A stretch of DNA of 33,554 nt from a virus. Lineage: Duplodnaviria; Heunggongvirae; Uroviricota; Caudoviricetes. The notes beneath the pieces were generated by a model that was given only the letters and a program-made list of their open reading frames with translations, was not told where the DNA came from and searched no databases. Position numbers and translations under genes: made by a program. The stretch spans positions 1-33,554 of the IMG/VR virus record IMGVR_UViG_2648501235_000001; one strand, given 5' to 3'. Of the stretch, positions 4,347 through 19,429 are shown piece by piece (within the stretch, counting starts at the first letter, position 1; each line of letters opens with the position of its first letter).

Positions 4347-5054
4347 TTATGCCGCCTGTTTTAGTTCGTTAACTCTGATGTTCATTACCTGAACGCATTT
4401 AGCCTGCGCCTCCTCGTTGCCAGCCATTAATTGCCAGTCACGCTGATAACGCTCGATGAGTTTTTTCTTGTCAGTTTCTGTTGATGCATAATCGCTGAAG
4501 TCTTTCAGGATTTGTTCGCAGTCAACCGATGGAGATTTCTGGTTGGTATTTTCTGGTGATGGTTTGTTATCTGATGCTGGGATTGCCCATCCCGGCAGCG
4601 ATGGAGGGAGCCAGTAAAATCCTGTTCCATCCTTCAGTTTTGCCCTGTGCCACCCCTGCTTTTTATCGAGAGATGTTTGTGCGAAACCTTCCTCAAGGTT
4701 ATACAGATACCGACCGATTCCCCACTGAACGGCAGCGCGCTTCATTGCGCCGGAACGACCACCTTTGACGGCTTCTACCTGCGTGTTTTCAGCAGCATCC
4801 CATTTGGTTACCCATTCGGAATCAATCCTGATTGATATGCCGCATTCAACGCCTCCGTTGTTGGGAATATCGCGGTATTCATTGCGCCATCCTGCTTTGC
4901 CGCAAACATCGTCCAGGCGTTTCATGATTGCCCTGTTCGTGACATAAGCCAGCACCATAGCCCACACCTTGCCATCGCGTGTTTTACCGCTTTGCTGTAT
5001 TCTCCATTCTATATCTTCAGGGCTGAATGGCTCATCGAATTTATTCAAATCCAT
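4347..5054 (-). CDS. Putative phage single-strand annealing protein (Rad52/Erf-like class, tentative) forming a module with ssb
   Basis: 235 aa, ATG at 5054 with GAGGTG SD; its stop abuts the ssb start (4346/4347), a typical SSAP-SSB arrangement. Family inferred from position and general resemblance only; it is clearly not RecT or lambda Bet by sequence. Confidence 0.55.
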   Translation of the reverse strand: MDLNKFDEPFSPEDIEWRIQQSGKTRDGKVWAMVLAYVTNRAIMKRLDDVCGKAGWRNEYRDIPNNGGVECGISIRIDSEWVTKWDAAENTQVEAVKGGRSGAMKRAAVQWGIGRYLYNLEEGFAQTSLDKKQGWHRAKLKDGTGFYWLPPSLPGWAIPASDNKPSPENTNQKSPSVDCEQILKDFSDYASTETDKKKLIERYQRDWQLMAGNEEAQAKCVQVMNIRVNELKQAA

Positions 5055-13324: not shown

Positions 13325-13500
13325 TGTTTAGCCCATCCCAATCCCTTCAATACCAGAAAGAAAGCGTCGAGCGGGCTTTAACGTGCGCTAACTGCGGTCA
13401 GAAGCTGCATGTTCTGGAAGTTCACGTGTGTGAGTACTGCTGCGCAGAACTGATGAGCGATCCGAATAGCTCAATGTACGAGGAAGAAGACGATGAATGA
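13324..13500 (+). CDS. ninF: NinF
   Basis: 58 aa MFSPSQSLQYQKESVERALTCANCGQKLHVLEVHVCEYCCAELMSDPNSSMYEEEDDE matches lambda NinF as recalled. Below the ORF-track cutoff; read directly from the sequence. Confidence 0.75.
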   Translation: MFSPSQSLQYQKESVERALTCANCGQKLHVLEVHVCEYCCAELMSDPNSSMYEEEDDE

Positions 13501-14215
13501 GTTAATAAATGGCAATGCCATCAAAATGACAAGCATTGAAATCGCTGAGTTGGTGGGTAAGCGTCATGACAATGTGAAACGTACCATCGAAACGCTGGCT
13601 AAAAATGGTGTTATCCGGCTTCCTCAAATTGAGGATTGTGGAAGAATCAATGGGTTAGGCTTAAATCAAAGTTTTTGTGTGTATGTATTCGAAGGCGAAC
13701 AAGGAAAGCGAGACAGTATTGTCGTTGTAGCCCAGTTGTCGCCGGAATTCACCGCTCGTCTTGTTGACCGTTGGCGAGAGCTTGAAGAAACTGCGGTTAA
13801 TATCCCCAAAACGTTACCGGAAGCGTTGCGCCTTGCTGCTGATCTTGCTGAGCAGAAAATGCAACTGGAAAACCAGCTCGCAATTGCCGCACCTAAAGTT
13901 GAGTTTGCCGATCGAGTTGGCGAGGCCAGCGGAATTTTGATTGGAAACTTTGCAAAGGTTGTTGGTATTGGTCCAAACAAACTGTTTGCGTGGATGCGCG
14001 ATCACAAAATCCTTATTGCTTCAGGTTCCCGGCGCAATGTGCCAATGCAGGAATATATGGATCGCGGCTATTTCACAGTGAAAGAAACAGCGGTCAACAC
14101 AAATCACGGAATACAGATATCGTTCACCACAAAAATCACCGGGCGTGGTCAACAGTGGCTGACCAGAAAGCTGCTCGATAACGGAATGCTGAAAGTAACA
14201 GGGGAGGCTGCTTAA
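13493..14215 (+). CDS. Rha-family N-domain + KilAC-type C-domain protein (Roi/antirepressor-like)
   Basis: N-terminus ...MTSIEIAELVGKRHDNVKRTIETL... fits the Rha signature (T-S-x-EIAELxGKRHxNVxRxI); 240 aa; ATG overlaps the ninF stop. Confidence 0.65.
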   Translation: MNELINGNAIKMTSIEIAELVGKRHDNVKRTIETLAKNGVIRLPQIEDCGRINGLGLNQSFCVYVFEGEQGKRDSIVVVAQLSPEFTARLVDRWRELEETAVNIPKTLPEALRLAADLAEQKMQLENQLAIAAPKVEFADRVGEASGILIGNFAKVVGIGPNKLFAWMRDHKILIASGSRRNVPMQEYMDRGYFTVKETAVNTNHGIQISFTTKITGRGQQWLTRKLLDNGMLKVTGEAA

Positions 14216-15765: not shown

Positions 15766-15947
15766 CATGTCATTGATGAGTCTCAATAACCTGCCGCCGA
15801 GTAGTTTTTATGCTCTGAATTGTATTTGTGTAGTAAACATGCTGACTGCAATGTAATAGAGTTTTTTAGCCTGTAACCTCTTGACGGCATTGAATTGCTT
15901 TTGTTATGAGTTGTAAGCCAATGTTATCATCTTGTATTGGGGTGGTT

Positions 15948-16664
15948 ATGAAGGATGGTGCGCTGCTCAGGAGTTCTTCACTTTTTATTGCCTACATGGG
16001 ATGCCTTGGATGGGGGAGTGCTTATTTCTATGGATGGGGTACTTCTTTTTACTACGGCTTCCCATGGTGGATTGTAGGTGCAGGTGTTGATGATGTTGCC
16101 AGAAGTTTATTTTTTGCAGTTATCGTCATTGCTATATTTCTTATCGGTTGGGGTATTGGTGTTGTATTCTTTTTCGCAGTGAAAAGAAAACATTCTATGC
16201 AAGAGCTAAATGTATTTCGCCTTTATTTTGCTGTGGAATTATTGTTTATGCCGGCAATTATTGAGTTTTCTATATTGAGACAGAAGATTCAGGTACCTCT
16301 TTTGCTACTGTCAGCAGCGATTGCGCTGGCGGTTACAATTTCGATAAGATCTTATGGGCGATTTTTATCGGTATCATGCTTCTATGATAAGCCATTTATA
16401 AAAAAACATTTTTTTGAGATTGTGATGATTGCTTTTGTGGCATATTTCTGGCTTTTTTCATTTCTGACAGGATATTACAAACCGCAGTTTAAGAAAGAAT
16501 ATGAAATGATTAATTATAATGATGGTTGGTATTATGTTCTTGCTCGTTATGATAATTGTCTGGTTTTGTCTACTTCTTTCAATGCAGGTAGTAAAAGGTT
16601 TGTCATTTATCAATCAGCACAAGATAAGAATCTTCAGGTTGATATTGTAAGGACCAGAATTTAA
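15948..16664 (+). CDS. Uncharacterised multi-pass (about 5 TM) inner-membrane protein; AT-rich cargo gene between pR' and the lysis cassette
   Basis: Open frame 15906-16664. Start is ambiguous: ATGs at 15906, 15921 and 15948, only the last with a weak G-rich SD. Hydrophobic segments LFFAVIVIAIFLIGWGIGVVFFFAV, LYFAVELLFMPAIIEFSIL, VPLLLLSAAIALAVTISI, FFEIVMIAFVAYFWLFSFL. About 27% GC in a sampled stretch. Confidence 0.55.
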   Translation: MKDGALLRSSSLFIAYMGCLGWGSAYFYGWGTSFYYGFPWWIVGAGVDDVARSLFFAVIVIAIFLIGWGIGVVFFFAVKRKHSMQELNVFRLYFAVELLFMPAIIEFSILRQKIQVPLLLLSAAIALAVTISIRSYGRFLSVSCFYDKPFIKKHFFEIVMIAFVAYFWLFSFLTGYYKPQFKKEYEMINYNDGWYYVLARYDNCLVLSTSFNAGSKRFVIYQSAQDKNLQVDIVRTRI

Positions 16665-17121: not shown

Positions 17122-17466
17122 ATGACCTGCCACTGGCAGATGGTCATCCTGTGATTTGATTCCGGTTCCGGCTTTTTAACTCTGTTCCTGTACACGGGAG
17201 AAATTCTATGTCGATTAATCGTTATGATATTGGTTACAAGAAGTACCACGTATTGTGTTGAGATAGAAAGCCTGGTGCCAGAGGTAAATGCAGCAGCATA
17301 ATAAAAAAGAGCCAGCGCAGAAGAGAACGGGTAAAAGAGTCTGCGCTGGCGTGGGGATATTCCCCGTGGAGAAATGATATGTAACACACATCGGGAACCT
17401 TTCTATATAAACATTATCATTATTGTCAATCATAACAGTCAGGTATTATGACGTTTATGCATCAGG

Positions 17467-17497
17467 GCCATCAGGAATTAACTGGTGGCTTTTTATT
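17467..17497 (+). terminator. Candidate intrinsic terminator 35 nt upstream of the holin start
   Basis: Stem GCCATCAG/CTGGTGGC (17467-17474/17482-17489, one G-U) with 7-nt loop, followed by TTTTTATT. Confidence 0.4.
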
Positions 17498-17529
17498 GTT
17501 GTCAGCTTCCGGATAACGGGAGACGGGGT

Positions 17530-17745
17530 ATGTACCAGATGGAAAAAATCACAACAGGTGTGTCATACACCACGTCAGCGGTGGGGACGGGATACTGGCT
17601 ACTGCAGTTGCTGGACAAAGTCTCCCCATCCCAGTGGGTGGCAATAGGCGTATTGGGTAGCCTGGTGTTTGGCTTGCTGACGTATCTGACAAACCTTTAT
17701 TTCAAGATTAAAGAAGATAAGCGTAAGGCTGCGAGAGGTGAATAA
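17530..17745 (+). CDS. S: Class II holin (pinholin), phage 21 S type, with dual-start motif
   Basis: [71 protein letters not shown] parallels phage 21 S as recalled; ATGs at 17530 and 17539; GGAG SD. The six-frame ORF start at 17485 is GTG. Confidence 0.85.
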
Positions 17746-18242
17746 TGTCGCCATCATTACGCAGGGCTGTTGCTGCTGCTATTGGTGGTGGGGCTGTTGC
17801 CATAGCGTCTGTGCTCATCACTGGTCCGAGTGGTGACGATGGCCTGGAAGGTGTCAGCTACATACCATACGAAGATATCGTTGGCGTATGGACTGTATGT
17901 CACGGACACACCGGAAAAGACATCATTCCCGGTAAAACGTATACCGAAGCAGAATGCAAAGCCCTCCTGAATAAAGACCTTGCCATGGTCGCCAGACAAA
18001 TTAACCCGTACATCAAAGTCGATATACCGGAAACAACGCGCGGCGCTCTTTACTCGCTCGTTTACAACGTGGGCGCTGGTAATTTCAGAACATCGACGCT
18101 TCTTCGCAAAATAAACCAGGGTGATATCAAAGGCGCATGTGACCAGCTACGTCGCTGGACATACGCTGGCGGTAAGCAATGGAAAGGGCTGATGACCCGT
18201 CGTGATATTGAGCGTGAAGTCTGTTTGTGGGGGCAGCAATGA
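17745..18242 (+). CDS. R: SAR endolysin (signal-anchor-release lysozyme), phage 21 R type
   Basis: N-terminal SAR domain [22 protein letters not shown] followed by a lysozyme domain ([23 protein letters not shown]...); start overlaps the holin stop (TAATG). Confidence 0.9.
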
Positions 18243-18706
18243 GCAGGGTAACCGCGATTATCTCCGCTCTGGTTATTTGCATCATCCTCTGCCTGTCATG
18301 GGCTGTTAATCATTACCGTGATAACGCCATCGCCTACAAAGAGCAGCGTGATAAAAAAGTCAGTGAGCTGAAGCAGGCGACCGCCACCATTACTGACATG
18401 CAGCAACGCCAGCGTGCTGCTGATGTACTCGATGCTAAATACACGAAGGAGTTGGCTGATGCGAAAGCTGAAAATGATGCTCTTCGGCGCAAGCTTGATA
18501 ATGGTGGTCGGGTGCTCGTCAAAGGAAAATGCTCTGTGCCATCCTCAGCCGAAACCTCCAGCGCCTCCGGCATGGGCAATGATGCCACCGTCGAACTCTC
18601 TCCAGTTGCTGGACGAAACGTTCTCGGTATCCGGGACGGAATTATCCGTGACCAAACAGCACTGAGAACGCTTCAGGAGTACATCAGGACGCAATGCCTG
18701 AAATAA
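18239..18706 (+). CDS. Rz: Spanin inner-membrane subunit Rz (i-spanin)
   Basis: [34 protein letters not shown]... (N-terminal TM plus coiled coil) parallels lambda Rz; ATG overlaps the R stop (ATGA). Confidence 0.85.
18459..18665 (+). CDS. Rz1: Spanin outer-membrane lipoprotein subunit Rz1 (o-spanin), embedded in the +1 frame of Rz
   Basis: [44 protein letters not shown]...: lipobox VVGC and Pro-rich mature region as in lambda Rz1; AAGGAG SD 8 nt upstream. Confidence 0.75.
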
Positions 18707-18738
18707 TTTTTTTGCAAATCACAAAGTCAATTTAATGA

Positions 18739-18762
18739 GCCTCGCGATGCGGGGCTTTTTTA
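18739..18762 (+). terminator. Intrinsic terminator downstream of Rz/Rz1
   Basis: Stem GCCTCGC/GCGGGGC (one G-U) with 3-nt loop (18739-18755) followed by TTTTTT. Confidence 0.5.
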
Positions 18763-18904
18763 CGTCCGCAGTAAACGCGCATCTCACGCGCATATTAACG
18801 AGAGCCTTTCAGTAAGCGAGCCTGAGAAATGCCGTTATAGGTGGCGACCTCTCTCGGGCGGCTTTTCTGTGAGACAGGCTCACTTTCTAAAAGGTAAAGA
18901 CGCT

Positions 18905-19429
18905 ATGAATAATCATTCAGTTATTCCAGCCTTCGACTTCCGAGAAATGGTGCAAGCCAAAAACGGAGAGGTCGTTACCACATCCAGAAAAATTGCCAAG
19001 TACTTCGGCAAGCGACACGGTGATGTTCTCAGGAAAATCGAGCAGGTTAAGGCTGATTGCTCGCGTGAGTTTAGCCAACGCAATTTTGCGTCGGCTGATT
19101 ATATCGATGAGCAGGGCAAGGTTCGCCCGATGTACAGCCTGACGAAAGATGGCTGGATCATGGTTGTGATGGGGTTCACCGGGAAAGCTGCTGCGGCAAT
19201 CAAGGAGAGCTATATCGCAGCATTCAACTGGATGGCAGAGCAACTGAGCCGCCGCATGGCAATTGGCGAAGAAATGCAGCACCGCTACGCCATCAAAGAA
19301 ACACGCTCAAAGCTGAAAGGTACGATCGGCAGTCGGTTAATGAACGAACGGAAGAAAGAGAAGCGTGTCCTGGCTGTCGAGCATGAATACATTTTGCAGG
19401 TGACACAGCCTGAACTGCTGATTAATTGA
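18905..19429 (+). CDS. rha: Rha-family phage regulatory protein
   Basis: ...TTSRKIAKYFGKRHGDVLRKIEQV... fits the Rha signature; ATG at 18905. The six-frame ORF start at 18869 lacks an SD. Confidence 0.65.
   Translation: MNNHSVIPAFDFREMVQAKNGEVVTTSRKIAKYFGKRHGDVLRKIEQVKADCSREFSQRNFASADYIDEQGKVRPMYSLTKDGWIMVVMGFTGKAAAAIKESYIAAFNWMAEQLSRRMAIGEEMQHRYAIKETRSKLKGTIGSRLMNERKKEKRVLAVEHEYILQVTQPELLIN

Follow-up and report, generated by a model that had tools for sequence, protein, structure and literature searches.

Two in-frame start codons with no basic residue between them in the pinholin gene of an Escherichia coli lambdoid prophage

Pinholins form pinholes of about 2 nm, which depolarise the membrane and offer the endolysin no passage. 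In phage 21 and in lambda, the proportion in which the two products of the S gene are made is set by a stem-loop that the mRNA forms at the ribosome binding site. The record of phage 21 (OL657228.1, Center for Phage Technology) annotates both of them, the antiholin S21-71 as a dual-start product and the class II holin S21-68. The extra positively charged residue of S21-71 retards the externalisation of transmembrane domain 1 and thereby makes the longer product an antiholin, and two further positive residues on S21 block the release of this domain altogether (PMC4749879, PMC9636201, PMC13056207, 10.1101/2024.01.23.576932). The initial annotation of the locus described here had stated that phage 21 S starts with MKSMDK and that its longer form is an antiholin by virtue of the extra positive residue. 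Both statements hold, as the 71-residue S21 query showed a 100% match to OL657228.1 and the same model is described in the four papers cited above. The S gene of lambda (antiholin S107, holin S105) resembles that of phage 21 and the gene studied here in having two nearby in-frame starts in one gene, of which the longer product, S107, is the inhibitor, and S107 carries two extra positive charges, namely Lys2 and the deformylated Met1 (PMC6116005). In contrast, lambda S is an unrelated class I holin with three transmembrane domains, and its extension is Met-Lys, whose antiholin character is ascribed to a positive charge that is absent in the Met-Tyr-Gln (MYQ) extension described below. The holins of Shiga toxin (Stx) phages are classed as P21-family pinholins (PMC10462455).

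We analysed a window of 33,554 nucleotides, which is the whole stretch of DNA of the IMG/VR virus record IMGVR_UViG_2648501235_000001. The coding features at the lysis locus of the window are the following.

17530-17745, plus strand: long frame of S from the first ATG, 71 aa, MYQMEK... (ORF list, Pfam, alignment with S21)
17539-17745, plus strand: short frame of S from the second ATG, 68 aa, MEK... (alignment with S21; annotation of phages 21 and 434)
17530-17538, plus strand: three-codon extension ATG TAC CAG (Met-Tyr-Gln), with no basic residue (sequence read)
17745-18242, plus strand: R, SAR-type endolysin (lysozyme) (Pfam PF00959, E = 1.6e-44; 92% identity to the phage 21 SAR endolysin)
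18239-18706, plus strand: Rz, i-spanin (Pfam PF03245, E = 8.8e-29 on the ORF 18227-18706; start set by the phage 21 annotation)
18459-18665, plus strand: Rz1, o-spanin lipoprotein, inside Rz in another frame (Pfam PF06085, E = 8.1e-21 on the ORF 18414-18665)

The ATG codons at 17530-17532 and 17539-17541 share one frame (ATG TAC CAG ATG GAA AAA), so that the product starts with MYQMEK. These two in-frame starts, which the initial annotation had reported, were confirmed by the sequence read and by the ORF list. The stop codon TAA of S lies at 17743-17745, and the ATG of the endolysin gene begins with its final A (TAATG). The S product matched the Pfam family PF04971 (bacteriophage P21 holin S) with an E value of 1.1e-32 and 112 bits against a cut-off of 26, and it also matched PHROG holin families. 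Its alignment with phage 21 S covered 71/71 residues without gaps at 75% identity. The earlier assignment to the S21 type of holin is supported by both the Pfam match and this alignment. Judged by hydropathy only, S has two uncharged stretches, one at residues 7 to 28 that is weakly hydrophobic and rich in Gly, Ala, Ser and Thr (mean hydropathy about 0 to 0.8) and one at residues 31 to 58 that is strongly hydrophobic (up to 2.3); both coincide in position with those of S21. The glycine-zipper-like G40xxxS44xxxG48 motif of the second transmembrane domain is present at residues 40 to 48 (GVLGSLVFG, compared with GVLGSLVLG in S21), and the C terminus is basic and conserved with S21. On the sequence-based family criteria examined, S is classified as a class II holin (pinholin) of the phage 21 family. 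By alignment, the 68-residue frame is the equivalent of the S21-68 holin of phage 21 and of the sole product possible in phage 434.

R aligned with the phage 21 SAR endolysin over 165/165 residues, including the Gly/Ala-rich N-terminal domain, and on this match it is taken to be the partner expected for a pinholin. The ATG of Rz at 18239 overlaps the stop codon of R (ATGA), and the start of Rz1 (MRKLKMM...) was placed by its match to the phage 21 o-spanin. The order of a SAR endolysin and then Rz/Rz1 behind S is shared with phage 21. Genes for O, a DnaB-type helicase, NinX, Ant/Rha, RusA and the antiterminator Q were found upstream of S, and genes for Nu1 and terminase A were found downstream. 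The region from 17300 to 18750 showed 99.9% identity to prophages in E. coli strains D1 and A25 and 99.1% identity to a prophage in strain E2348/69. From the neighbouring genes and these prophage matches, the locus is therefore assigned as the S-R-Rz/Rz1 lysis cassette of an E. coli lambdoid prophage.

Other genes were observed around the cassette. A low-GC (33-40%) insert between Q and S carries an ORF of 252 aa with a multi-pass membrane-like product (15906-16664, plus strand), at the position where Stx phages carry stx. Checked as a separate lysis regulator or defence gene, this ORF gave no Pfam or PADLOC match; it matched PHROG 1521, a family of unknown function. There are also two genes with Rha domains on the plus strand. 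One of them, in the nin region (13493-14215), encodes a Rha plus KilAC antirepressor, and the other, a Rha-family gene at 18869-19429, is inserted between Rz and Nu1.

We compared the S gene with those of three named phages. Phage 21 S (OL657228.1) has in common with it the M-x-x-M spacing, the distance between the Shine-Dalgarno sequence and the first ATG, the uncharged stretches, the G40xxxS44xxxG48 motif and the basic C terminus. It differs in its extension, which is Met-Lys-Ser instead of the Met-Tyr-Gln found here with no extra positive charge. In addition, the gene described here has a second Shine-Dalgarno-like sequence, GGGGT, right before the first ATG, and its transmembrane domain 1 is richer in Thr and Val than that of phage 21 S. 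The S protein of the Stx2 phage 933W (NC_000924.1) has the identical N terminus over 23 residues (MYQMEK...), the start region GCTTCCGGAT(T/A)(G/A)CGGGAGACGGGGTATGTACCAGATG is common to both genes, and the proteins are 93% identical with few, conservative substitutions in the body. However, the endolysin of 933W is a different protein of 177 aa that does not overlap S, whereas the endolysin here is R of the phage 21 type. Phage 434 S (OL657226.1) has a 96% identical body and the same arrangement of R and Rz/Rz1, but its 5' end reads ...GACGGAGAC ATA CAT CAG ATG, which lacks the first ATG and places a single GGAG 11 nt ahead of the sole start. This sequence lies at positions 1489-1512 of the phage 434 locus (L120). 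Phage 434, a classical and viable phage, is annotated with the 68-aa pinholin and no antiholin. We considered whether this 68-aa-only annotation could be read as a discounting of the MYQ start, and this was ruled out, since the phage 434 DNA reads ATA CAT CAG and has no first ATG to discount.

The initial annotation had stated that the extension carries no basic residue, and this proved correct. Met-Tyr-Gln contains neither Lys nor Arg, and the long form therefore gains no side-chain net charge over the short form (a difference of 0, compared with +1 in phage 21). In the classical dual-start motif, the starts lie one or two codons apart and the extension contains Lys or Arg; the spacing was found at 17530/17539, and the basic residue was absent. 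Under the charge model, it is plausible that the antiholin is weak or absent. No relevant paper on start usage or antiholin activity of the 933W/H-19B-type S or of MYQMEK was found in the searchable literature. We put at about even the explanation that we consider the best, namely that both ATGs are usable and that the two products have equal N-terminal charge, so that the long form would be a holin or, at best, have weak antiholin activity. Both the use of the two starts and the lack of antiholin activity in the long form are points that we infer. The gene retains the start-region layout of the family (small predicted hairpin, Shine-Dalgarno sequence, first ATG, two codons, second ATG), and the 933W-type sublineage carries Gln at the residue that is Lys or Arg in other members. 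Because the N-terminal net charge of the 71-aa and 68-aa products is equal, transmembrane domain 1 of the long product would leave the membrane about as readily as that of the short product. The long form would then act in lysis itself or inhibit it weakly at most, and lysis timing would be set mainly by the amount of S protein and by the transmembrane sequences, as in the single-start allele of the 434 type. Against this explanation, the extra polar residues Tyr and Gln, although uncharged, could retard the translocation of the N terminus to some extent.

The initial annotation had implied that an extension without charge is unusual in this family, and this view was not sustained. The S family was found by tblastn in 438 phage records, mostly of Stx phages. 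The MYQ-type start region was found at 4,873 places in 1,948/5,426 complete E. coli genomes with a 35-nt query over the Shine-Dalgarno sequence and both ATGs, in which a mismatch at the central base gives no hit. No allele is more common in E. coli than MYQM, which is already known as the 933W-type S. The charge-less MYQM start is ordinary because it is this commonest form and is the same as that of the Shiga toxin phage 933W. In a protein search, two Met residues were present in 94 of the best 120 cluster representatives. Within these best 120, the extension was basic in 53 of the 94 two-Met representatives (MKS, MYR, MLR, MHR, MK, MMK and MKF) and contained no Lys or Arg in the other 41 (MYQ, MDQ, MNQ, MHQ and MFQ). 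Nonbasic extensions were also found on Cronobacter, Citrobacter, Franconibacter and phage-21-like protein bodies. The pattern M-x(1-2)-M was kept in almost all family members examined, and on these sequence comparisons the two-ATG arrangement is not considered a product of chance. The initial annotation had also stated that its inference would be refuted by an alignment in which many functional S21-type antiholins lack a basic residue. As to prevalence this is the case, since the basic residue is absent from many S21-type genes (41/94), whose long forms are, however, only putative antiholins.

We next considered the natural variation of the extension. The more distant members from Enterobacter, Raoultella, Trabulsiella, Dryocola and Shimwellia all have M-R-M, and the closest basic relative of the MYQMEK N terminus is MYRMEKIT, encoded by ATG TAT CGA ATG GAA AAA ATC. 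The basic extension is widespread and probably ancestral, and therefore MYQ plausibly arose by a change from Arg to Gln. A sample of 120 MEKITTGV-type genes was taken from IMG/VR in scan order, not ranked by similarity to the query. It contained MYQ (88 genes), IHQ (18), the acidic MDQ (8) and MNQ (6), and a basic extension was found in 0/120. MYQ, MDQ and MNQ all occurred on one identical 68-aa body, and in the IHQ class (18/120) the DNA reads ATA CAT CAG ATG, so that the first ATG is absent. Among 99 distinct haplotypes, codon 2 (17533-17535) was the most amino-acid-variable codon of the gene, with TAC, GAC, AAC and CAT encoding four radically different residues (Y, D, N and H) and zero synonymous variants. 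The body of S in the same haplotypes showed abundant synonymous change, and its replacements were conservative only (K/R, L/F, V/A, L/V and E/D). The single-start allele of the phage 434 type was found at 2,788 places in 692 E. coli genomes. Taken together, these variants provide evidence that the residues of the extension are unconstrained and that the long form may be dispensable.

All changes in codon 2 affect its first base, which directly follows the first ATG, and they could affect initiation efficiency as well as the protein. The 434-type allele is often multicopy (median of 4 per genome); O157:H7 strains in which it coexists with the MYQ allele are one example. Furthermore, one protein, P0093, has the MYQMEK N terminus on an otherwise phage-21-like body, which suggests a recombination joint in the first few codons of S. 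With a joint at this place, the start region and the holin body would therefore be exchanged independently.

The retention of the two starts was examined in the same way. Among haplotypes with the GGGAGACGGGGT start region, the first ATG was intact in 82/82. No point mutation had removed it within this start region, and the haplotypes that lack it all have a 5' end that is entirely of the 434 type. An exhaustive search of 50%-identity representatives (153 hits) yielded distant full-length members with two Met residues, both basic (MKIM, MKM and MYRM) and nonbasic (MITM, MQLM, MTDM, MTM and MNM). The DNA of four nonbasic members from distant, independent lineages (MITM, MQLM, MTDM and MNM) showed a Shine-Dalgarno sequence about 5 to 8 nt before the first ATG and a small hairpin 5' of it. 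By neutral expectation, only about 5% of genes would have an additional ATG at a distance of three codons or less from the real start, and therefore the two-Met layout appears to be maintained in the charge-less lineages too. This suggests that selection keeps the two starts irrespective of charge. In a pair of related distant loci (L248 589-609 and L246 595-609), one member reads ATG AAC ATG GAC and the other reads TTG AAC ATG GAC; the "single-start" member of this pair may have an alternative TTG start.

This retention bears on the claim of the initial annotation that the long form is not an antiholin or that a single start is used. The claim fits the published charge model and the natural variants, but the first ATG kept in all of its own haplotypes and the recurrence of charge-less two-Met starts in distant lineages, each with a Shine-Dalgarno sequence before the first ATG, hint that two starts still matter. 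The same two observations favor another explanation, in which the 71-aa MYQ form would function as an antiholin, perhaps a less potent one, and the exit of domain 1 would be slowed by the polar residues or by the free deformylated N-terminal amino group. The spread of nonbasic extensions over several protein backgrounds, in 41 of 94 two-Met representatives within the best 120, also agrees with it, as does lambda S107, in which one of the extra charges comes from the deformylated Met and not from Lys2 (PMC6116005). However, the published mechanism rests on an extra positive side chain, and the N-terminal Met of the short form has the same amino group as that of the long form. Moreover, the acidic MDQ variant and the variants with no first ATG, which occur on the same or nearly the same body, are hard to fit to a tuned inhibitor. 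We regard a working antiholin without the charge as doubtful. A charge-independent function of the two-start arrangement, either as a timing modulator insensitive to membrane potential or as a translational throttle from competing starts, would explain the persistence of the arrangement in the charge-less lineages MYQM, MITM, MQLM, MTDM and MNM, although we consider such a function unlikely.

The start region reads ...GGGAGACGGGGT ATG TAC CAG ATG GAA AAA, and three features were noted before the two starts.

17518-17522, plus strand: Shine-Dalgarno-like GGGAG, 7 nt before the first ATG (sequence read; conserved in 933W)
17525-17529, plus strand: second Shine-Dalgarno-like sequence, GGGGT, 9 nt before the second ATG (sequence read)
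17506-17522, plus strand: predicted hairpin CUUCCG-GAUAA-CGGGAG, which would sequester the first Shine-Dalgarno sequence

GGGAG stands in the same geometry to the first ATG as GGAGG, the annotated ribosome binding site, does in phage 21. For GGGGT, a hybridisation estimate of -6.3 kcal/mol at an aligned spacing of 8 was obtained from a crude model that fails the phage 21 control. This simplified thermodynamic model of initiation gave comparable rates of 0.11 and 0.30 for the two starts here and almost none at Met4 of phage 21, which contradicts the annotated products of that phage. The model was discarded as an arbiter of the start, and it decides nothing because its own phage 21 control fails.

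A single ATG might be used in vivo, either the first only, with Met4 as an internal residue, or the second only, with the first Shine-Dalgarno sequence shut in the hairpin. GGGAG is ideally spaced from the first ATG, as in every family member, and both the NCBI pipeline and the 933W record call the 71-aa form. The predicted hairpin can sequester the first Shine-Dalgarno sequence, and GGGGT is placed before the second ATG. On the other hand, the geometry is that of phage 21, whose record annotates both products, and the family-wide conservation of both Met residues is most simply explained by the use of both. Use of one start only is judged improbable.

A start further upstream was considered as well. 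An in-frame GTG at 17485 would give an 86-aa product whose Arg-Arg extension (...DNGRRGMYQ...) could make it a charged antiholin. The frame has no interruption from 17485 onwards, an AGGA is placed 8 nt 5' of the GTG, and some gene callers report such longer products. However, the GTG sits inside a terminator-like hairpin (17464-17492), and the Arg-Arg pair is merely the Shine-Dalgarno region read in frame. This start was rejected as a hidden charged antiholin start because its codon is not conserved, as the open stretch upstream contains none of the codons ATG, GTG and TTG in many haplotypes, that of 933W among them; we regard it as extremely improbable. The terminator-like hairpin at 17464-17492 (plus strand), with 11 pairs and a T-run after it, lies directly 5' of the S start region, and a terminator is annotated at the corresponding position in phage 434. 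Q-modified polymerase presumably transcribes through this hairpin.

The hairpin at 17506-17522 was evaluated in the whole family, in which a hairpin at the same position was predicted in every subfamily. Its sequestration of the first Shine-Dalgarno sequence here was no better than in composition-preserving shuffles of the upstream arm (p = 0.71 and 0.64). Across 15 lineage representatives, which are not fully independent, the Fisher combined p value for sequestration was 0.0024. RNAalifold on a MAFFT alignment of 30 start regions returned no pairs because this alignment is not structure-consistent. The predicted hairpin thus has modest support at the level of the family, and it carries no weight in our interpretation.

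The MYQ allele provides the holin of 933W and of the majority of Stx phages, and prophages in roughly one in three complete E. coli genomes carry it. The timing of the holin fixes the burst size and, in Stx phages, also determines when the toxin is released. If the long product is no antiholin, these phages would time lysis without the intragenic inhibitor of the phage 21 and lambda paradigms, and annotation should stop the transfer of "holin/antiholin" by homology. The Lys or Arg of the classical motif is absent here, and S is therefore not to be annotated as holin/antiholin by homology alone. If instead the long product is an antiholin, the charge-based rule would need revising. If a charge-independent function is true, the textbook rule of a basic residue in antiholins would be incomplete, and the pinholin of Stx phages, on which the timing of toxin release depends, would be regulated differently from that of phage 21. 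In each case, the answer would refine a well-understood system and would not open a new one.

Finally, near-identical Escherichia-type holin loci (L004, L005, L008, L011, L026 and L030) were found in assemblies named for other taxa, with titles of Xanthomonas pisi, Candidatus Nanosynbacter, Bacillota, Veillonella parvula and Geobacteraceae. These loci in non-Escherichia assemblies and MAGs most likely represent contamination or mis-binned contigs.
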